From Eubacteriales bacterium (GTDB taxonomy: Bacteria > Bacillota > Clostridia > Oscillospirales > CAG-272): a stretch of DNA of 52,471 bases. The position numbers and the translations under genes were made by a program. The stretch lies in contig JBGVLA010000108.1 in assembly GCA_045124015.1 (NCBI GenBank), positions 1 through 52,471 of the forward strand, given 5' to 3'. This document shows, piece after piece, positions 2,517 to 47,795 of this stretch (its first letter is position 1; each line of letters begins with the position of its first letter). The notes below the pieces were generated by a model. That model saw only the letters and a program-made list of their open reading frames with translations. It ran no database searches and was not told where the DNA came from.

Positions 2517-3830
2517 ATGGAAAAGAAAACGATCGGCGCATTTATCGCCGTCTTACGAAAAGCAAACGGTATGACCCAGCGTGAGCTTGCGGAAAAGCTC
2601 AACGTATCCGACAAAGCGGTCAGCAGATGGGAGCGCGACGAATGTGCGCCCGACCTTTCGCTGATCCCCGTGATCGCGGAGATCTTCAATATTACGACAG
2701 ACGAGCTTCTCCGTGGAGAACGCAAAACAAAAAATGCGGAGGAAACCGAAGCCCCTGCGGAAGCATCCGTTTATATCCGCGAAAAAAGCAACAAGCAATT
2801 TCAAAATCTCTTACGCACGAAGCTCATGCGTCTGCACGAGCGCAGTATGATCTCCTATGGTCTGATGTTCGTGGGATTTATCGTCGCGCTCATTTGCAAT
2901 CTTGTATTCACCAAAGCCGTCCTCGGCTTCTTCCTTGCGCTCGTTTGTTATGCGGCGGCGCTCATTACGGAGATATGCTTTTTGCGCCGCGCAAAGCTCG
3001 ACGAGGACGATGCTTTTGACTATGGAAAATGGCTGACCTATCAAAACGATATCGTCCGCATCGGCGAAAGATCCTTTTTCGTCCTTTGGATGTTCCTCGG
3101 CGTTACGCTTCCGTTCCTTATTGCGATCGGCATCAGCGGTGTCAACGCAGGACTTGAGTTTGGGGCATATCTTCTTCTCGCTTTGATCTTCGGCGTGATA
3201 TTCTTGATCGTGGGCTATATGCTCCTTACGTTCATGGTCCAGCCAAAGCTCATGCAAGCGGGATTGCTCTTTTTGACCGACTCCGAAAAGGAAAATCACA
3301 AGGCAAAACGCAAGCTCCTCAAAAAGACCGTCCTTGCTTCGGGTATTTCCGCTCTTTGTCTGGTGCTTTGCGCGGCGTTTCTTTTGGAATCCATGACCGC
3401 TTTGTCCACGGTCTTTGCCGAGCGTATCCGTTTTGATGATTACGAATCCTATAAGGCATTTATGGAAACGCCTGCGGGGAGATTTGAGGATTGGGACGGT
3501 GGCTTTGAAATCAGCTATACCCAACCCGTTTCGCCTTCTGATGAAGAATGGGTCGATGAGGATTACACTTATTATCCGAAAGATACCGTAACCGACAAGG
3601 ACGGCAACGTCCTTTGCGAATATGTCCGCCGAAACGAATCCGTTTGGGTAACGGAATATTCCTTTGATGAAAGCGCGGACGGTCTACCCATCTTCGTTAC
3701 CACACGCGAAGCACACCGCGCCGTTGCAAATGTCGTTGAATGTATCGCCATCGCGCTCGGTATCCTTGCCGCGGCAGATGTACTCCTTGCCATCGTGATC
3801 TATATCAAAAAAGCAAAAAAATACGCTTAA
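2517..3830 (+). CDS. XRE-family HTH protein fused to a multi-pass membrane/extracytoplasmic domain
   Basis: N-terminal IGAFIAVLRKANGMTQRELAEKLNVSDKAVSRWE HTH followed by several TM helices; GGAGG RBS. Confidence 0.85.
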   Translation: MEKKTIGAFIAVLRKANGMTQRELAEKLNVSDKAVSRWERDECAPDLSLIPVIAEIFNITTDELLRGERKTKNAEETEAPAEASVYIREKSNKQFQNLLRTKLMRLHERSMISYGLMFVGFIVALICNLVFTKAVLGFFLALVCYAAALITEICFLRRAKLDEDDAFDYGKWLTYQNDIVRIGERSFFVLWMFLGVTLPFLIAIGISGVNAGLEFGAYLLLALIFGVIFLIVGYMLLTFMVQPKLMQAGLLFLTDSEKENHKAKRKLLKKTVLASGISALCLVLCAAFLLESMTALSTVFAERIRFDDYESYKAFMETPAGRFEDWDGGFEISYTQPVSPSDEEWVDEDYTYYPKDTVTDKDGNVLCEYVRRNESVWVTEYSFDESADGLPIFVTTREAHRAVANVVECIAIALGILAAADVLLAIVIYIKKAKKYA

Positions 3831-28069: not shown

Positions 28070-28208
28070 TTACAAATTCAGCGCGAAGAAGTCCTTTCTA
28101 CATCTTGAAAAATCGCTTTTCCTGTGATATACTGAATATGTATATATTCAAAAACAGAAATTGACGCAAATGTAATTGTCTATAAAAATCAGAAAGGACT
28201 TTTCATTT

Positions 28209-30683
28209 ATGAAAAAATCTTACCGTATCATCGGTGCCCTTGCCGCCGCAACGATCGCAGCCGCTTCCCTCGCGCTTTCGGGCTGTAACGATGCAGGCGA
28301 ACCCAACGAAGAGGTCTCCATCGATACCGAGGGTCAAATTTACCTCAGCGACAACTCCCTTTTTAGCTATACACTGAACAAAAATGACGGTACCGCAACG
28401 CTCGTTTCATACAACGGCGATGCCGCAAGCGTTATTTTGAACCGCATCGACGGCAGATATACGATCAGCGCGATCGCAGAAGGTGCGTTCGCAGGCAACC
28501 AAAATCTCACCAAGATCGAGTTGGGCGAGGATATCCGCGCGATCGGCGAAGGTGCTTTTTACGGCTGTATCAAGCTTGAGACCGTCGTTTTCCGCGGAAA
28601 ATCCAAGCTGCAGCTCATCGAAAACAACGCCTTTGAATCCTGCGTCAAGCTGAAAACCTTTGCGATCCCCGCTTCTCTCAAGACCATCGGCGCCGAAGCC
28701 TTTCTCGATTGCACCTCCGCTACGATCGACTTCTCTGAGGCAACAGGACTTACGACCATCGGTGAATATGCGTTCTCCTTCTGCGGCACGGCATCCGCAT
28801 CCGAGCTCACCGTAACCCTGCCCGAAAATCTTTCCGACATCGGCACAGGTGCTTTCTACGGCTCCACCAATATCGGTGCCTTCAACGTTTCGGAACACAA
28901 TCCCAATTATTCCGCAAAAGACGGTATTCTTTATAACAAATCGGGAGACACCTTGGTTCTCTATCCCGCGGCGCTCGGCATCGGAGAAGAATTCACCGTT
29001 CCCGAAGGCGTAAAAACGATCTCAGGCGGTGCTTTCGCGGGCGCTGGCATCACCGGCATCACCCTTCCCGAAGGCTTCACCGCCATCGGCGGAAGCGCAT
29101 TTTACGATGCGTATGCACTGAAATCCGTTTCCATTCCCGAGTCCATCGAATCCATCGGCAGCTTTGCTTTCTTGGATTGCTCGGCGCTGAAGGAGATCTC
29201 CATCCCCGACGGCACTGCACTCGGCTCTTATATCTTCCGTGCTTGCTCGGCGCTTGAAAGCGTAAAGCTTCCCGCAGATCTCACCGAGATCCCTGACGGA
29301 CTTTTCGACTCCTGCGCAAAGCTTGCGACTGTCGACATCCCCAAGGGCGTTACCGAGATCGGTCAGTTTGCATTCAACTACTGCACCTCTCTTACCGAGA
29401 TCGATGTTCCCAAAACCGTTCGCACCATCAAGAGCTACGCGTTCCGTAACTGTGCATCGCTGAAAACGATCGACGTTTCTACGGCAACGACGATCGGCGA
29501 TTTCGCTTTCCAATACTGCGCGAAGCTCGAATCTGCTGATATCAGCGGCATTTCTGAGATCCCCGCGTATATGTTTGAAAGCGCGGCGCTCCTTTCCGAC
29601 GTCAAGATTTCCGACTCCATTACGCAGATCGGCAACTATGCATTCTTCGGATGCGATCATCTGGCAAGCTTTTCGATCCCGCAAAGCACGACCGCCATTG
29701 GTGATTTTGCGTTTGGCAAGTGCCTTGGTCTGAACACGATCACCATTCCTGCATCGGTAACCACACTGGGAGACGGTGTCTTCTATTCGTCCGGCATCGC
29801 AAGCGCTGTTATCGAAGCAAAGATCCAAACGCTTCCTGCGTCTTTCTTTGATAGCTGCAAAAAGCTCTCTTCTCTGACCCTTCCTGCTTCTCTTGAAAAT
29901 ATCGGCATGGGTGCTTTTGCTGAATGTGTCATCCTCAAGAACATTCCCTTTGCCGCCCCCATCAAGCACGTCGGCGACGGTGCCTTTACAGGCTGTCGTT
30001 CGCTCGAAAATATCATCATCGGAACCGAAGATACCGTCATCGGCGCAGGCACCTTCTACGGATGCGATGCGCTGACCGACATCGTCATTCCCGAAGGCAT
30101 CACCACCATCGGTGCATCCGCCTTTGCAAACTGCGTCTATATGGAATCGGTATCCTTCCCCACCACGCTCAAAACCATTGAAAGCGGTGCATTCTCCGCT
30201 TGTGCGAAAATTGCACGCGCCAACCTTCCCGAAGGACTCACGGTCATCGGCGATGCCGCGTTCTCTGCTTGCACCAAGCTTACGAAAATAGACATTCCGC
30301 AAACGGTTATTTTTGTTGGCGAGGGCGCTTTCACAGGCACACAATGGCTCCGCAGTAACAAGGATGATTTCCTCGTCGTCGGAGACGGCGTGCTCATCCA
30401 ATATACCGGAAATGCAACCAACATCATCATTCCGAGCACAGTCAAGCGCATTCCCGATTTCCGCTTCGCAAGCCTCAAGACCGAGCCGACCTCGATCACC
30501 ATTCCCGAAAGCGTGGAATACATCGGCAAGCAAGCCTTCGTCAAGCTCGTATCTTCGACAGACTCCTCCGGCAACGCTACGACCTCTTATAAACAGCGAT
30601 ATATCAAGATCATCGGTGTCAAGGGCTCTTATGCTGAAACCTATGCGAGATATGAATATTATACGTTTGAAGAACTCAAATAA
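28209..30683 (+). CDS. BspA-type leucine-rich-repeat (LRR_5) surface lipoprotein
   Basis: Signal peptide with lipobox LSGC; many IGxxAFxxCxxLxxIxIP repeats. Confidence 0.92.
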   Translation: MKKSYRIIGALAAATIAAASLALSGCNDAGEPNEEVSIDTEGQIYLSDNSLFSYTLNKNDGTATLVSYNGDAASVILNRIDGRYTISAIAEGAFAGNQNLTKIELGEDIRAIGEGAFYGCIKLETVVFRGKSKLQLIENNAFESCVKLKTFAIPASLKTIGAEAFLDCTSATIDFSEATGLTTIGEYAFSFCGTASASELTVTLPENLSDIGTGAFYGSTNIGAFNVSEHNPNYSAKDGILYNKSGDTLVLYPAALGIGEEFTVPEGVKTISGGAFAGAGITGITLPEGFTAIGGSAFYDAYALKSVSIPESIESIGSFAFLDCSALKEISIPDGTALGSYIFRACSALESVKLPADLTEIPDGLFDSCAKLATVDIPKGVTEIGQFAFNYCTSLTEIDVPKTVRTIKSYAFRNCASLKTIDVSTATTIGDFAFQYCAKLESADISGISEIPAYMFESAALLSDVKISDSITQIGNYAFFGCDHLASFSIPQSTTAIGDFAFGKCLGLNTITIPASVTTLGDGVFYSSGIASAVIEAKIQTLPASFFDSCKKLSSLTLPASLENIGMGAFAECVILKNIPFAAPIKHVGDGAFTGCRSLENIIIGTEDTVIGAGTFYGCDALTDIVIPEGITTIGASAFANCVYMESVSFPTTLKTIESGAFSACAKIARANLPEGLTVIGDAAFSACTKLTKIDIPQTVIFVGEGAFTGTQWLRSNKDDFLVVGDGVLIQYTGNATNIIIPSTVKRIPDFRFASLKTEPTSITIPESVEYIGKQAFVKLVSSTDSSGNATTSYKQRYIKIIGVKGSYAETYARYEYYTFEELK

Positions 30684-30727
30684 TGTAAGACAGTAAGACT
30701 GATTTTACACAAATTTTCAGAAATCAT

Positions 30728-30819
30728 AAAAGCTCCCGCAACACGCAGTTTTCTGCGATCCGTTGCGGGAGCTTTTGAATCGTTATGCCCTTGTGTTATA
30801 CAACACAAGGGCATAAAAA
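30728..30819. terminator. Pair of terminators between convergent LRR genes
   Basis: AAAAGCTCCCGCAAC/GTTGCGGGAGCTTTT and TTATGCCCTTGTGTT/AACACAAGGGCATAA stems. Confidence 0.75.
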
Positions 30820-30823
30820 GCGG

Positions 30824-32791
30824 TTAATTCTTATAATAATTGACCTTGATCTCCTGCGCGATGCCACCGAGAATGGTGTAGATATGCGGTCTTGCAGAAG
30901 GATCGACGTTAAGCGTCGTAAGAGCAGCACATTCGTAGTTAAAAAGATCTACGCCGGGGAACGTAAGCCCCTTCGGCAAGGTAACGCTCTTAAGCGAGCT
31001 ACAACCGATGAAAACGCCATAACCGATCGATTTTGTGTTCGAGGAGATTTGGAAAGCAGGAATACTTGCACAATAACTGAAAGCATAGTTGCCGATCGTT
31101 TCCACATTGAAACCGCCCGAGATAGAAGAGAGCGCCGTGCAGAATGCAAAAGCATCGGCATCGATCTTCTTCAGCGAATTCGGAAGAACGACCTTTTCTA
31201 CGCTGAGCATACGGTAAAAGGCACTGTTGCCGATCTCAACCAAGGTTTCGGGAAGCGCGAGCTCCTTCACGTTGTAGCTGATATTGTACTTGGAACGGCC
31301 CGATTCACTAAGACCCGAAGTATCCGTAGGAACATATGCAATATCCCAACCGCTGAGCGCGGAGCCTGCGATCTTTTTAACACCATCGGGAACGGTGATC
31401 TTCGTCTGTCCATCCGCAACATATGCGGCAAGGAGGATGTGGTCGCCCGTAATGAAATAACGGTCAGCCTCCGATTCCGCTTTGGATGCTTCCTGCATAA
31501 AGCTTTCATAAGCACCTGTACCGGCAAACGCATACGCGCTGACAGTTTCTACGCTGACAGGAAGCGCCATCGATTCAATGCCATAGCATCCCTGGAAGGC
31601 GTAGCTGCCAACGCTCTTCAAATTGGAACACTTGGAAAAATCGACATTCGCCGTGGTTTTGATGGTCTCATCTTCAATATAAATGTTGAAGGCACTGTCT
31701 CCAATGGTCGTAACGCCTGCAGGGAGCTCGACATACCGGAGATTATAACAGCCTGCAAATGCAGATGTGCCGATCGCGGTAACGGTTTCGGGAAGAACGA
31801 GCGTCTCCAGCTCAGCTGCGTATTTATAGCCGTATTCTGCCGCCTGATCTTCGTTTTCTGCATTCCAAAAAGCCGTGCCGCCAATCGCTTTGATCGGCTT
31901 ATCGGAGATATCCAAAAAATTGGGATGGACTGCACATTTGATCAAAACACCATCGCCCACGATCAAATAATCCTCGTCATTTTCCTGATACCAAGGTGTA
32001 AAATTGAATGCGGCATAATCGACCATCTTGACCGAATCTGCGATCGTTACGTCAGAAAGACGTGTGCAATTATAAAACGCAAGCTTACCGATCAGCTCTA
32101 CCCCACTCGGGATCGTAACAGAGCGAAGCATCGCACAGCCCATAAAAGCGTAGTCGCCTATGGTTTTCAGCGCACGAACCTCGGAAAGATTTGTTTCGGA
32201 AAGATTGACACATTGCGCAAACGCCCACACACTAAGCTGTTCAAGCTCCTCGGAAAAGGTTACGCTTTCCAAAGCAGAGCAATACCAAAATGCGCCGTCA
32301 TCAATATAACGGATATGTTCCATAGAGATGCTTTCCAATGCCGTACAGCCGTAAAACGTATACTGTCCGATACGATCGATTGAGGAAGGCAATGTGATCT
32401 CCGTCAAAGAGGTACAATCATAAAATGCATACGAGCCAAGCTCCTGCACGCCATCTTCGATAACGACCTTTTCGAGAGAAGTGCATCCTTGAAAAGCACC
32501 GGAGCCGATAAATTCGACATGAGAGCCGATCACGACCTCCCTAAGACTTTCATCTCCGGAAAATGCGCTTTCCGCAATTGCCGTGATCGTTTCGGGAACG
32601 ACGTATACACCGTTTTCGTCCGCCTGACCAACGCAGGAAACGAGCAAGCCGTCATCGACGTGATAGGATTTCGGATAAGATTTGTCTGTGTTCGTCGAGG
32701 TTGTCGTTTCATTGACGCTCGGCGTATCGCAAGAGGTAAAAGCTACGGCAGAAATACACGCCGCAAGACATAATGCAATCAGTTTTTTCAT
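30824..32791 (-). CDS. BspA-type leucine-rich-repeat (LRR_5) surface lipoprotein
   Basis: MKKLIALCLAACISAVAFTSC lipobox; IGxxAFxGCxxL repeats. Confidence 0.92.
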   Translation of the reverse strand: MKKLIALCLAACISAVAFTSCDTPSVNETTTSTNTDKSYPKSYHVDDGLLVSCVGQADENGVYVVPETITAIAESAFSGDESLREVVIGSHVEFIGSGAFQGCTSLEKVVIEDGVQELGSYAFYDCTSLTEITLPSSIDRIGQYTFYGCTALESISMEHIRYIDDGAFWYCSALESVTFSEELEQLSVWAFAQCVNLSETNLSEVRALKTIGDYAFMGCAMLRSVTIPSGVELIGKLAFYNCTRLSDVTIADSVKMVDYAAFNFTPWYQENDEDYLIVGDGVLIKCAVHPNFLDISDKPIKAIGGTAFWNAENEDQAAEYGYKYAAELETLVLPETVTAIGTSAFAGCYNLRYVELPAGVTTIGDSAFNIYIEDETIKTTANVDFSKCSNLKSVGSYAFQGCYGIESMALPVSVETVSAYAFAGTGAYESFMQEASKAESEADRYFITGDHILLAAYVADGQTKITVPDGVKKIAGSALSGWDIAYVPTDTSGLSESGRSKYNISYNVKELALPETLVEIGNSAFYRMLSVEKVVLPNSLKKIDADAFAFCTALSSISGGFNVETIGNYAFSYCASIPAFQISSNTKSIGYGVFIGCSSLKSVTLPKGLTFPGVDLFNYECAALTTLNVDPSARPHIYTILGGIAQEIKVNYYKN

Positions 32792-32945
32792 AAATTCACA
32801 TATTCCCTTTGCTTTGAATATTCTTTGATATCGTACTTTATTATTATATAACATTCAGCCAAATATGTCAACCGCGATTCGATGAAGTTCACAATCTTGT
32901 AAAAATCTATTTTCGTTTTCTTCAAGATCGCTTCATTTGACAAAA

Positions 32946-46538: not shown

Positions 46539-46654
46539 ATGCAATCTCCCTTTATTGAACTTTATATTTTATAATCATTATCATCACAGCCCACTGCCTA
46601 TTTAGATTTTATGATATCACAAATTTGTGGATTTGTCAATGAAGCATTCGCTCC

Positions 46655-46724
46655 GCGGTCGGTTCGAGGGATAGGGGGTGCCTCCAAAACGAAAAAGCAC
46701 CCCTTTCGGGATGCTTCGTTTTGG
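46655..46724. repeat. 70-bp direct repeat (terminator + inverted tRNA-Cys 3'-end copy), copy A
   Basis: Differs from 47534-47604 by only 2 substitutions and 1 indel. Confidence 0.9.
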
Positions 46725-47381
46725 CACGAGTTGACGAAAAAGATGCCTATGAATATTTAGTTTCGTCAAGCGGTGTTAGATCAAAATGGTGATGCTCGAT
46801 TTTTCCATAAATAGACCAGGTCTGATCAATTTTATCTGCCGGAAGCTCTGTCGGATTTCCATCACTGTCAGTTGTTGCCCAAATTAATCGCTCAGCTTGT
46901 ATCCAAGAGGATTCCTTTTTGAGTTCATCAATATGGTCAATGCTTTGATCTCCCCATTTGTCATCCTCAATCCACAGAAATTGCCCATTTTCAAGCAAAA
47001 GCAATACACTGCCCATAATCTCACTTACAAACCCCATGGCAACGCGAATGTTTATATCCATGTGGTGTACGGCAATAAAACGGAGAATAACACTACCCTC
47101 TAACTCATCATACTTTAAGAAAAGTTCCGCAGTATAACGATCGGGCATATAATTAACACGTTCAATTTTGAAATCGTGAAAATGCCAATTGCACTCCATA
47201 AAATTTTGAATACCTTTTTCTGAATGCTCAACTTCATACCAAACAGCCATGTCATCACTCCTTTCCAAAAATTATATCACATGTTCTGATATTTTTCAAT
47301 ATTTACCGCAAAAGTTAAATGTTAAAGGTTCACATCTACTCCCTTGCCCAAAAATGCCCATTGGCATCTTTTTTGTCAACA
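46725..47381. mobile_element. Putative non-autonomous single-gene cassette inserted at a tRNA-Cys 3'-end copy
   Basis: 18-bp inverted repeats GTTGACGAAAAAGATGCC (46730-46747) / GGCATCTTTTTTGTCAAC (47363-47380) and flanking 8-bp direct repeat CGTTTTGG (46717-46724, 47382-47389); AT-richer cargo; no recombinase inside. Confidence 0.65.
46747..47250 (-). CDS. Hypothetical protein (cassette cargo, ~167 aa)
   Basis: GAAAGGAG RBS, own TTGAAA-17-TATAAT promoter (47299-47271), stop codon overlaps the left inverted repeat; no recognised family. Confidence 0.8.
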   Translation of the reverse strand: MAVWYEVEHSEKGIQNFMECNWHFHDFKIERVNYMPDRYTAELFLKYDELEGSVILRFIAVHHMDINIRVAMGFVSEIMGSVLLLLENGQFLWIEDDKWGDQSIDHIDELKKESSWIQAERLIWATTDSDGNPTELPADKIDQTWSIYGKIEHHHFDLTPLDETKYS

Positions 47382-47533
47382 CGTTTTGGAGGCACCTCCT
47401 CCCCAATCGCATAGTCGTTTCACGCGCGAAGACAAGCTTCACTTCTGAAACTCCTTGCTTTGTGGGGTATCGCGTCGAGAAAACGCCATAACATGGCGTT
47501 TTCTCTTGCTCACTCAGAATGAACTGCCGCTTT

Positions 47534-47601
47534 GCGGTCGGTTCGAGGGATAGGGTGGTGTCTCCAAAACGAAAAAGCATCCCTTTCGGGATGCTTCGTT
47601 T

Positions 47602-47604
<3 letters not shown>
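47534..47604. repeat. 70-bp direct repeat, copy B (tRNA-Cys terminator + inverted 3'-end copy)
   Basis: Starts at the CCA of tRNA-Cys on the minus strand; AAGCATCCC-GAAA-GGGATGCTT hairpin extended by GGAGACACCACCC, which pairs with the tRNA 3' strand. Confidence 0.9.
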
Positions 47605-47676
<72 letters not shown>

Positions 47677-47795
47677 GGAATATGGCTTTTTCGCCATATA
47701 AAGATATGAAAAAGAAAAAAGTGAAAAGCATCAACACTCTCGGGGGGAGCTTTACTTTTCACCGTGAGCATTTTCACCTGCTCCAAGAATGATAA

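Follow-up and report, generated by a model that had tools for sequence, protein, structure and literature searches.

At the end of a tRNA operon of a Eubacteriales bacterium (Clostridia; Oscillospirales; CAG-272), four copies of the tRNA-Cys 3' end that alternate in orientation form the junctions of a small, non-coding and modular element that we call the R1 unit after its conserved core, R1. The unit is best read as a low-copy, modular and probably mobile element that duplicates the 3' ends of stable-RNA genes, and by analogy it resembles the tRNA-linked repeats (TLRs) of Escherichia coli. The stretch of DNA that was analysed (52,471 nt of contig JBGVLA010000108.1, assembly GCA_045124015.1; hereafter the window) contains one full R1 unit (47382-47601) and the first third of a second one (46649-46724). 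The R1 family is linked to the 3' ends of tRNA, tmRNA and RNase P RNA genes, and its arms were shown, by sequence matching, to copy the 3' end of the local gene.

Organisation of the tRNA-Cys locus

The tRNA-Cys(GCA) gene (47602-47676, minus strand; called by ARAGORN and scoring 64.6 bits with the Rfam tRNA model) is the final gene of a Val-Asp-Phe-Gly-Cys tRNA operon, and its 3' end, GGGTGGTGCCTCCA, is sense copy number 1. On the same strand it is followed by T1 (47567-47601), an intrinsic-terminator-like hairpin recognised from the sequence and its folds, with the stem 47575-47583 / 47588-47596 and a GAAA loop; as this stem is bordered by complementary A and T tracts, termination is predicted to be possible both ways. 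A 36-nt copy of T1, 100% identical, lies elsewhere in the host genome (contig C147, 2208-2243). Antisense arm A (47534-47566, minus strand; inverted repeat I2) carries TGGAGACACCACCC, which is complementary to the last 14 nt of tRNA-Cys at 13 positions; a degenerate antisense T-loop, TCGAAC, comes next. With 95% complementarity over 21 nt in the inverted repeat 47553-47573 / 47595-47615, the last 14 nt of tRNA-Cys pair with 47553-47566 across the terminator hairpin (13/14).

Behind arm A, the apex hairpin CCGC-AAA-GCGG (47527-47537, minus strand) makes the turn between the antisense and sense T-arm pieces; in genome G017 it is replaced by a compensatory version, TCACC-GAA-GGTGA. The partial sense T-arm copy (47514-47526, minus strand) was read from the sequence as CAGTTCA-TTCTGA against CAGTTCGATTCTG in tRNA-Cys, and the same piece is present in G017, G014, G225 and G264. 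It is followed by the 115-nt R1 core (47399-47513, minus strand), which is conserved, structured and multi-copy, and by sense copy number 2, GGAGGTGCCTCCAAAACG (47382-47399, minus strand; direct repeat D4), which comprises the tRNA-Cys 3' end and the 5 nt that directly follow it and matches 47597-47614 at 17 of 18 nt (94%). In gene direction, an R1 unit of ~215 bp is thus composed of T1, the antisense 3' copy, the apex hairpin, the partial sense copy, R1 and a sense copy of the extreme 3' end of the gene, after which a further terminator follows. In the window this terminator is T1' (46687-46724, minus strand; direct repeat D1, 94%), and it leads into antisense arm B, TGGAGGCACCCCC (46649-46686, minus strand; direct repeats D1 and D3). 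Arm B carries the antisense T-loop and the beginning of a second apex, where the unit is truncated before the promoter of a HAD hydrolase gene.

The first-pass annotation had listed four tRNA-end copies in alternating orientation, a terminator running into an inverted tRNA copy, a hairpin in the spacer, a second sense end and a near-identical copy of the terminator and anti-tRNA module, and all of these were recovered at the positions that it gave. The module 46649-46724 is 94% identical to 47528-47604, so the duplication holds; it is no plain tandem, since 657 bp including an ORF lie between sense copy 2 and the module copy. The exact 10-mer GGTGCCTCCA occurs seven times in the 2.47-Mb genome, three of them inside this 930-bp stretch.

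The predicted fold-back is strong both as RNA (47520-47680, -73.2 kcal/mol, z -7.7) and as single-stranded DNA (47534-47640, -33.5 kcal/mol, z -9.75), and as neither value was matched by any of 200 shuffles, a chance origin is unlikely. Over 47380-47570 (-83 kcal/mol, z -7.3) arm A pairs with sense copy 2 and closes the unit. For the two roles that the first-pass annotation had put forward, a recombination substrate or a hairpin that could sequester the 3' end of read-through pre-tRNA, the fold is what is shown. The plus-strand GGGTGGTGTC was considered as a T-box, but it is merely the complement of the tRNA end, and the Rfam scan gave no T-box.

A gene cassette within the second copy

A 0.66-kb cassette (657 bp), overlooked in the first-pass annotation, has been inserted between sense copy 2 and its terminator T1'. 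It is bounded by inverted repeats (I1; 46726-46758 / 47352-47384, 33 nt, 82%), the left arm containing the motif GTTGACGAAAAAGATGCC at 46730-46747 and the right arm the motif GGCATCTTTTTTGTCAAC at 47363-47380 and a small hairpin at 47354-47367. The 8-nt word CGTTTTGG is found on both sides (46717-46724 and 47382-47389), and the cassette thus has the terminal inverted repeats and target-site duplication of a MITE or transposon. Its cargo is an ORF of 167 aa (46747-47250, minus strand) with its promoter region adjoining the right arm. The product is a conserved hypothetical protein with no Pfam family and with 66 homologue clusters, all unnamed, and the ORF is covered by RNA-library contigs from two studies.

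A second cassette with the same ends and insertion point and another cargo is present in the host genome (C147, 130-2205); no transposase was identified. Further copies of the GGCATCTTTTTTGTCAAC motif occur in the host genome, and a homologous junction was found at locus L121. As judged by eye, this motif is not a sigma-70 promoter (TTGACA plus -10 box), as the -10 spacing and sequence vary between copies, and GTCAAC / GTTGAC misfits the consensus of the attC core site.

The conserved R1 core

The part that the first-pass annotation had called a spacer is the key part of the unit, a conserved and covarying fold. R1 consists of GTGAGCAAG, the hairpin H1 (47477-47505; arms 47477-47489 / 47493-47505, 13 nt, 100% complementary) and a long irregular hairpin made of P1 (CCCCA/TGGGG), P2 (GCAAG/CTATGC), a tandem GA/GA internal loop, P3 and P4. 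Compensatory changes were seen in 13 of the 17 predicted pairs, P1 and P3 covary among 100 unique R1 cores, and the GA/GA loop is conserved. When compared with the 4227 covariance models of Rfam, R1 gave no family at E up to 1 in the window or at seven further loci, and none at the gathering score at 40 loci. A literature search on RNA motifs downstream of tRNA genes gave no match, and the integrase and hairpin literature, judged by title or abstract, contained no work on such elements.

Seven copies of R1 were found in the host genome with nhmmer. A strict R1 pattern was present in 41 of 301 genomes of the family and 21 of 97 genera, at 1-6 copies per genome (the reversed-pattern control gave none), and in at least 121 stretches of public ruminant-gut MAGs. 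The R1 of the window is 97-98% identical to that on C147, and for 15 of 25 copies from MAGs with more than one locus, the closest relative was another copy of the same MAG. A nearest-neighbour test by type of linked gene (4/30 matching) is uninformative, because many of the 450-nt flanks are too short to hold the gene.

Link to stable-RNA genes and copying of their 3' ends

More than half of the R1 loci (43/80) lie within 450 nt of a stable-RNA gene, 40 at tRNA, two at tmRNA and one at RNase P RNA genes; as background, 1.5% of the host genome is within 450 nt of a tRNA or tmRNA gene. Some units are located away from stable-RNA genes. Loci at Cys, Met, Ser and Pro tRNAs, at tmRNA and at RNase P RNA all show this architecture. 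R1 can point either way relative to the gene, roughly one copy in four being opposite, and at tmRNA and RNase P RNA it is always on the opposite strand. A unit followed by a partial unit, as in the window, was seen also at a Ser locus (L136) and at the Cys locus of G017, and G225 has two full tandem units.

For 23 copies a same-strand tRNA ends less than 260 nt upstream of the core, and 16 of these carry an exact copy of at least 10 nt of the 3' part of that tRNA, antisense and/or sense. Antisense arms of at least 10 nt were found for 9/23 cognate against 14/424 non-cognate pairs, and sense arms of that length for 10/23 against 13/424. The arm therefore tracks the adjacent tRNA, as the first-pass annotation had anticipated, and at tRNA-Cys it follows four acceptor variants (TGGTGCC, TGTCGCC, TGACGCC and TGGCGCC) in different genera, with T1 sequences that are unrelated. 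Met loci have a perfect 24-nt antisense arm and sense copies of 15-21 nt, Ser loci have sense copies of 21-23 nt, and tmRNA loci combine a 16-nt sense copy with inverted copies of 12-13 nt. At the RNase P RNA locus there are three tandem units, in each of which a copy of 21 nt is accompanied by an inverted one of 11 nt. R1 gives way to the sense copy in the anticodon loop for Met, in the T-loop for Ser and at the junction of T-stem and acceptor stem for Cys, and the sense copy is shorter or degenerate at several Cys loci. At L121 a perfect 35-nt inverted repeat flanks R1, and in G225 the second antisense arm perfectly complements the tRNA, yet mismatches the adjacent degenerate sense copy. Pairing of the R1 flanks reached z below -2 relative to non-cognate controls in just 8 of 74 copies, since terminators with generic A/T tracts will find a pairing partner in any sequence.

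The survey proposed in the first-pass annotation shows that tRNA flanks do not in general carry antisense arms, as one was found at 1 of the 46 tRNAs tested in the host genome (score 13 for tRNA-Cys against 8 or less for the other 45). The pattern GCCTCCA N20-60 TGGAGRCNNC matched 31 of the 301 family genomes, no better than its reversed control; only the hairpin-type matches at tRNA-Cys, picked by eye and present in about 10 of the 301, carry meaning. R1 was present at 6 of 10 inspected tRNA-Cys fold-back loci. A terminator with an antisense arm and no R1 was seen in G197, G043, G136 and G041, and plain direct repeats of the tRNA-Cys end, again without R1, in G034.

Comparison with known systems

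TLRs have been known in E. coli since 1978. A published account (PMC8144298) places them, including the rrA, rrB and rrF small RNAs, directly behind tRNA or rRNA genes and between two terminators, describes their end as the 3' end of the upstream gene (18-19 bp), allows for tandem repeats and calls their function and origin largely unknown. The R1 units likewise stand behind a stable-RNA gene and between terminators, end in a copy of the gene end and form tandem arrays. The unit of the window begins at the tRNA CCA and 23 other copies lie downstream of a same-strand tRNA; the terminal copy matches at 17/18 nt in the window and measures 21-23 nt at Ser, 15-21 nt at Met and 16 nt at tmRNA loci. 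Unlike TLRs, the R1 units have an antisense gene-end copy that extends the terminator stem, share one covarying core among tRNA-Cys, Met, Ser and Pro, tmRNA and RNase P RNA, and occur in either orientation, also away from stable-RNA genes, in Clostridia. The likeness is one of architecture, the sequences having been compared through Rfam scans only.

In integrative elements that target tRNA and tmRNA genes, the repeat can begin in the anticodon loop, in the T-loop or at the acceptor end, and the non-autonomous remnants include att-flanked islands and cis-mobilisable elements. With these the R1 units share direct repeats of the 3' part of the gene (47382-47399 / 47597-47614 in the window, and at Ser, Met, Pro and tmRNA loci), tandem accretion and variable cargo nearby. 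They differ in their size and in having no integrase nearby, no recombinase being found in or beside the insert, and their antisense copy and single-strand fold are not needed by ordinary double-stranded att sites.

Folded sites offer another comparison. The attC sites of integrons and the attP of CTX phage are imperfect palindromes, with structure conserved over sequence, in which inverted target-like copies fold to imitate a duplex; after integration of such folded single-strand sites the order is site, loop and inverted site, with variable gene cassettes between. The R1 units resemble them in being folded and in separating variable cassettes (L121, C147 and the window), whereas what they imitate is a stable-RNA gene's 3' end, a target that differs from locus to locus. 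A check by eye for attC core sites (GTTRRRY / RYYYAAC) revealed none.

The first-pass annotation had proposed a REPIN-like element with arms templated from the host tRNA. A dispersed repeat family with arms taken from the neighbouring gene was indeed found, and R1 is, like REPs and REPINs, a dispersed, hairpin-forming, non-coding repeat; the REPIN class itself had to be given up. The host genome (97.9% complete) gave no match to the Y1/RAYT transposase (PF01797), a search that was positive in 6 of 14 reference genomes used as control, so that the unit is no REPIN. In addition, R1 is present in 1-10 copies per genome rather than hundreds (seven in the host genome), and the unit is a composite, multi-part module with locus-specific arms rather than a simple REP pair.

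Origin and function of the R1 unit

We infer, with a confidence a little short of even, that the R1 unit is a non-autonomous insertion module or a derivative of one. It would enter the 3' part of the gene and supply a replacement 3' end and terminator, and the displaced native 3' end would remain behind R1, a topology that would be that of tRNA/tmRNA-targeting integrative elements; the units would multiply afterwards by accretion or duplication. The antisense copy would allow a single strand to fold into a stem that reconstitutes the target duplex and from whose junction R1 is extruded as a loop, and one top-strand exchange between the folded circle and the gene would give exactly the observed part order. 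Among congeners with 97-100% identical tRNA-Cys the unit is present or absent, and those without it have different flanks; the contig of a relative joins the flank of sense copy 2 straight to a real tRNA-Cys variant (joint 47396 to 47628). The repeat family, its link to stable-RNA genes, arms that follow the local gene, the recurrence of a unit with a partial unit, close relatives within one MAG and the closing fold also favour such a module. Within a single species, the assembled sequences showed neither a circular form nor an empty site.

No integrase, transposase or other recombinase was found beside R1 at any copy inspected. Between 28 and 52 kb, the ORFs of the window encode housekeeping proteins or glycosidases, with no site-specific recombinase among them, the R1 loci of G005 are flanked by housekeeping genes, and the six tyrosine recombinases of the host genome are all on other contigs. 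One reverse transcriptase gene (C188), considered in view of a possible retroelement primer-binding site, is also present in that genome. A single fixed att architecture does not predict the either-way orientation of R1, genes for RNase P RNA are not known as classic integration targets, and the covariation and the conserved tandem GA loop point to a functional RNA no less than to a DNA site. The low copy number, the loci with a terminator and antisense arm and no R1, and the second antisense arm of G225 also count against insertion.

By analogy with the TLRs of E. coli, R1 could instead be a small RNA or processing element that resides in stable-RNA operons, which we consider possible but rather unlikely. 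Transcription would either read through T1 or start at a promoter of R1 itself, and the copies would arise by local duplication and not by transposition. With a copy of the upstream gene's 3' end at its terminus, the transcript would be handled by the same 3' maturation machinery, and the antisense arm would form a long stem with either this copy or the tRNA end, which could serve as an RNase III processing stalk or as protection. The compensatory changes across 21 genera, the tandem GA/GA loop, the position between two terminators with a tRNA 3'-end copy at the end, the low copy number and the same-strand bias, with 23 copies close behind a same-strand tRNA, all speak for such an RNA. So does a promoter-like TTGACT...TATGAT with a hairpin, which precedes both R1 and tRNA-Ser(tga) on one strand at C16 of the host genome and in G005. 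An RNA-library contig (X18, 1484 nt) covers 47363-47603, although such contigs are assembled only and show neither transcript ends nor strand; in the run X16 the ORF and the tRNAs were covered and 47267-47572 was without a contig, a lack of cover that proves nothing. G-U pairs equalled A-C pairs on the R1 strand in 23 sequences (6 vs 6) and exceeded them in 100 cores (46 vs 28), an excess that would fit an RNA on that strand but makes for a weak strand call. A resident RNA is harder to reconcile with the quarter or so of copies that lie opposite the gene, including all at tmRNA and RNase P RNA, with the near-identical copies at different loci within genomes and with the patchy presence among congeners, and it gives no reason for an antisense copy able to unfold its own tRNA.

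It is less probable still that the arrangement is a functionless by-product, in which the terminator palindrome behind a highly transcribed gene would cause replication or break repair to switch templates or to prime on a fold-back. The gene end would be copied inverted and then direct, in a zig-zag, unequal crossing-over would yield the tandem copies, and R1 would be an unrelated intergenic repeat that prefers terminators. A zig-zag of sense, hairpin, antisense, hairpin and sense is the product of serial template switches at hairpins, as established for quasi-palindromes, and it is the part order observed here. The antisense arms of the window each match best the sense copy across their own hairpin, and the loci with only a terminator and antisense arm, as well as the direct repeats without R1 in G034, are as such copying would leave them. 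However, antisense arms are rare (1 of 46 tRNAs in the host genome, about 10 of 301 family genomes at tRNA-Cys), and R1 is nevertheless present at six of the ten fold-back loci. The recurrence at Cys, Met, Ser and Pro tRNAs, tmRNA and RNase P RNA and the perfect 35-nt inverted repeat around R1 at L121 also count against a by-product, and the conserved fold of R1 argues for selection.

Returning to insertion, a more speculative form of it, to which we give little credence, would make R1 the constant scaffold of a nucleic-acid-guided system whose arms direct a host or trans-acting recombinase to stable-RNA genes. The arms would pair with both strands of the gene, or form a fold imitating it, and the module would be inserted behind the gene together with the cassettes strung between modules, the arms being re-templated for each target; the window would then be a small tRNA-anchored cassette array with junctions acting like integron attC sites. 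Two further ideas were considered and rejected, the bridge RNA of IS110, as the sole IS110-type transposase (C124) has neither R1 nor the motif in its flank, and the omega-RNA of TnpB, as no TnpB was found.

That a chimeric or collapsed contig produced a false duplication, one of the refutations named in the first-pass annotation, is hardly credible, because the same junctions appear in independent metagenomes: although the genome is a MAG of 213 contigs and the repeats did break its assembly, as the start of C147 inside an R1 copy of 97-98% identity indicates, unitigs from two other studies cover 46559-46676, 46694-47415, 47407-47558 and 47386-47547, on either side of each part, with 0-6 differences and breaks only within that repeated terminator, the assembly runs through both module copies, which can be told apart at several positions, and independent MAGs of other genera have matching architecture. 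The R1 units in turn explain the recurrent contig breaks behind tRNA genes in these MAGs.

Implications

The R1 units extend the tRNA-linked-repeat phenomenon to a second, unrelated lineage, in a form richer than that of E. coli: a single conserved core stands behind many stable-RNA genes, accompanied by forward and reverse copies of their 3' ends. With dozens of loci, four tRNA-Cys acceptor variants and the tmRNA and RNase P cases, they offer a comparative handle on the origin of such repeats, which bears on whether these are mobile DNA, functional RNA or both. If the arms are target guides or a folded recombination site, the units would direct insertions to stable-RNA genes in a new way; should R1 be an RNA, it would be an uncatalogued structured RNA family of rumen Clostridia.

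Anatomy of the tRNA-Cys locus

The minus strand of the window carries a tRNA operon (Val-Asp-Phe-Gly-Cys) whose last gene, tRNA-Cys(GCA), lies at 47602-47676. On the same strand it is followed by T1 (47601-47567), a terminator-like hairpin whose GAAA-loop stem is flanked by complementary A and T tracts, and 3' of T1 by arm A (47534-47566), in which TGGAGACACCACCC is complementary to the last 14 nt of tRNA-Cys at 13 of 14 positions. TGGAGACACCACCC is followed by a weak antisense T-loop (TCGAAC), a CCGC-AAA-GCGG hairpin at the apex, part of a sense T-arm and a 115-nt core, R1 (47399-47513), which opens with the hairpin that the first-pass annotation had noted at 47477-47505. The unit closes with a second sense copy (GGAGGTGCCTCCAAAACG), consisting of the tRNA-Cys end and 5 nt of tRNA flank.

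Repeat detection, together with a search across the own genome, recovered the four alternating copies of the tRNA-Cys end that had been described from the sequence alone; an exact 10-mer of this end occurs seven times in the 2.47-Mb genome, three of them at the window locus. The tRNA-proximal hairpin was also exceptionally stable, both as RNA (z -7.7) and as ssDNA (z -9.75), with 0 of 200 shuffles equal in either case. The near-identical copy of terminator and anti-tRNA module was found at 46649-46724 (94% to T1 plus arm). Both copies of the module are real, but the annotation had missed that 657 bp with a 167-aa open reading frame (ORF) lie between the second sense copy and the duplicate. Elsewhere, at 28176-32854 of the window, opposite strands encode two large BspA-type leucine-rich-repeat proteins in an ordinary context, with capsule genes (CpsB/CapC, Wzz-ParA type) and an ATP synthase operon as neighbours.

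The R1 family and its predicted fold

With nhmmer we identified seven R1 copies in the own genome, and R1 was also found in congeners and other genera. A strict two-block pattern matched 41 of 301 sampled family genomes, representing 21 of 97 genera, with 1-6 matches per genome; the reversed pattern gave 0 matches in the same 301. At least 121 stretches of public metagenome-assembled genomes (MAGs) matched as well, labelled Eubacteriales, Clostridia, Oscillospiraceae or Ruminococcus and originating from ruminant and other animal guts. One copy opens contig C147 (C147:1-131), which begins inside the unit, and has 97-98% identity to the window R1; it represents either a separate locus or the window locus of another strain, carrying other cargo.

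Based on 23 copies, RNAalifold predicted a long irregular hairpin (P1 to P4) with compensatory changes in 13 of 17 pairs. Among 100 unique cores, P1 and P3 showed at least four pair types per position, and P2, which the search pattern keeps constant, is uninformative on covariation. The fold also has a conserved tandem GA/GA internal loop. As a guide to the strand of R1, counts of G-U against A-C were 6:6 in the 23 copies and 46:28 in the 100 cores and did not clearly favour one strand. R1 matched no Rfam family.

R1 units adjoin stable-RNA genes and copy their 3' ends

Among 80 R1 loci fetched with flanks from MAGs, a tRNA was located at most 450 nt from R1 in 40; the other 40 included two with a tmRNA and one with RNase P RNA, giving a stable-RNA gene at 43 of 80 loci against a background of only 1.5% of own-genome bases within 450 nt of a tRNA or tmRNA gene. 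Most commonly R1 and the tRNA share a strand, with the tRNA 3' end about 135-165 nt ahead of the R1 core; in about a quarter of cases R1 is opposite in strand to the tRNA. The linked tRNAs are Cys, Met (after Leu), Pro, Ser, Lys and Asn. At C16:6900-7250 of the own genome and at L067 (genome G005), R1 was observed within the leader of tRNA-Ser(tga), preceded by a promoter-like TTGACT...TGTGATATGAT and a terminator-like hairpin, with all parts on the same strand.

The flanks of R1 copy the gene that they adjoin. Exact matches of at least 10 nt were detected in antisense in 9 of 23 cognate tRNA-R1 pairs versus 14 of 424 non-cognate pairs, and in sense in 10 of 23 versus 13 of 424; 16 of the 23 cognate pairs had one or the other. 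Antisense copies measured 24 nt (perfect) at Met loci and 10-11 nt at Cys loci, and sense copies 21-23 nt at Ser loci. That the arm tracks the adjacent tRNA, as had been suggested, was borne out across genera, where the tRNA-Cys antisense arm matches four acceptor variants (TGGTGCC, TGTCGCC, TGACGCC and TGGCGCC) in mismatch-free runs of up to 15 nt, and the terminator between the tRNA-Cys arms is of unrelated sequence in each genus.

In three public MAG loci (L146, L153 and L177), R1 units adjoin the 3' ends of RNase P RNA and tmRNA genes, always opposite in strand to the gene and with copies of its 3' end. The tmRNA loci have a 16-nt sense copy and inverted copies of 12-13 nt. At RNase P RNA three units stand in tandem with a 206-nt period, each with 21 nt copied from the gene 3' end and an inverted piece of 11 nt. 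The order in the frame of the gene is the same throughout: gene, terminator, R1 in either orientation, copy of the extreme gene 3' end, terminator. Where the copy begins depends on the tRNA: at the anticodon loop for Met, at the T-loop for Ser and at the T-stem/acceptor-stem junction for Cys.

Possible movement or turnover of the units

Antisense arms are not a general trait of tRNA flanks, being seen at only 1 of 46 tRNAs of the own genome. In congeners whose tRNA-Cys is 97-100% identical, the terminators are plain and of unrelated sequence. Hairpin-type fold-backs at tRNA-Cys were present in about 10 of 301 family genomes, a count made by visual inspection, since raw pattern hits were as numerous as those of the control; R1 was found in six of the 10 inspected loci and terminator plus arm only in four. 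A unit followed by the first part of a second one was seen again at a Ser locus and at the Cys locus of G017, and G225 has two full units. In MAGs with at least two R1 loci, the nearest relative of 15 of 25 copies was in the same MAG. On another organism's contig, the sequence flanking the second sense copy of the window is fused directly to a real tRNA-Cys variant, which makes this flank look like a displaced native tRNA end.

Other repeats were also observed. L039 (G034) has a repeat of about 105 nt in direct tandem copies, each closing with a tRNA-Cys-like 3' end and terminator, a plain array of the E. coli tRNA-linked repeat (TLR) type without R1. Tandem GGAGGCACCTCCATT repeats, whose word resembles the tRNA-Cys end, occur at G266:C86:9842-9889 (L087), a locus without an ARAGORN tRNA. 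Behind the tRNA-Cys terminator of L035, L037, L045 and L049 (G003, G026, G007 and G028) there are arrays of short GC hairpins, each hairpin flanked by a repeated word (ATGAAGC, GTGATG, CTTCA), which may represent arrays of protein-binding sites or a further class of repeat.

Gene cassettes between R1 units

The window cassette (46726-47384) has 33-nt inverted repeats at its borders and the 8-nt word CGTTTTGG on either side. Its 167-aa ORF (46747-47250, minus strand) has no Pfam family and 66 homologue clusters, all unnamed, and is spanned by RNA-library contigs. The border motif of the cassettes is an inverted GTTGAC(A/G)AAAAAGATGCC, with further copies in the own genome. The same two ends enclose 2 kb with a TetR regulator and an RsgI_M-like lipoprotein at C147:130-2205. 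Both cassettes share one insertion point, between the tRNA-like end behind R1 and T1 (100% identical in C147), and no transposase was identified for either. At L121, a MAG locus, a protein gene stands on either side of the R1 unit, which is enclosed by a perfect 35-nt inverted repeat composed of the cassette motif and tRNA-Cys-type arms and is followed by a promoter region homologous to that preceding the window's ORF. One RNA-library contig has yet other cargo behind T1.

Two further own-genome contigs carry the motif. C95 (2641 bp) has a second, different tRNA-Cys (2540-2614, minus strand), downstream of which are short hairpins spaced by GATGAAATC-like words and then three small ORFs, with conserved inter-ORF junctions (cassette motif, hairpin, promoter TTGACACC...TAGAAT). 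At C51:1-1600 a direct copy of the final ~45 nt of tRNA-Met lies roughly 100 nt downstream, forming a repeat of the classic att type; a 379-aa ORF and two cassette-motif copies follow.

Discussion

With the anatomy, the R1 family and the locus-specific arms established, we infer an origin of the arrangement. Our favoured, still tentative reading is that the R1 unit is a non-autonomous insertion module: the constant order in the gene frame, the positions of the junctions, the accretion of units in tandem, the neighbouring cargo and the association with tRNA and tmRNA genes all match tRNA-targeting integrative elements. Against it count the low copy number, the occurrence of both R1 orientations, the RNase P RNA gene among the targets and the failure to find a recombinase near the R1 copies inspected, or RAYT or TnpB. 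A reverse transcriptase gene was noted at the start of C188 (10-546), and an IS110-family transposase gene at the start of C124 (65-535) has no R1 or cassette motif in its flank. The REPIN-like identity put forward by the first-pass annotation was not upheld, as no RAYT was found and R1 copy number is low.

It also counts against an insertion module that the covariation of R1 suits RNA equally well, and the main rival, which we regard as possible though rather unlikely, is a TLR-like small RNA produced between two terminators. PMC8144298 places the E. coli TLR small RNAs between two terminators, and E. coli TLRs are the closest known class to R1 units, which share two of the defining traits, position and the copy of the upstream gene's 3' end. 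R1 units differ in their antisense arm, their shared covarying core, their occurrence in either orientation and their Clostridial host. In selected literature on tRNA-linked repeats, on RNA motifs behind tRNAs and, by title and abstract, on integrase and hairpin topics, we found no description of R1-type elements. A neutral origin, in which the copies would have arisen via template switching, seems improbable. The window arrangement is not an assembly artefact, and false duplication is by far the least probable explanation, since independent unitigs of two studies, broken only within the repeated T1, carry the same junctions (46559-46676, 46694-47415, 47407-47558 and 47386-47547) with 0-6 differences, and the stretch is present in ruminant-gut metagenomes from about 10 studies.

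If R1 units are insertion modules, the antisense copy would pair with both sense pieces in a folded single strand, with R1 looped out at the junction, and such a fold would explain the parts that are superfluous to a double-stranded att site. One strand exchange between the folded form and the gene would then yield the gene with a new 3' end, T1, the antisense copy, the apex, the partial sense copy, R1, the old 3' end and the old terminator. Taken together, the cassette loci show R1 units alternating with variable cassettes.
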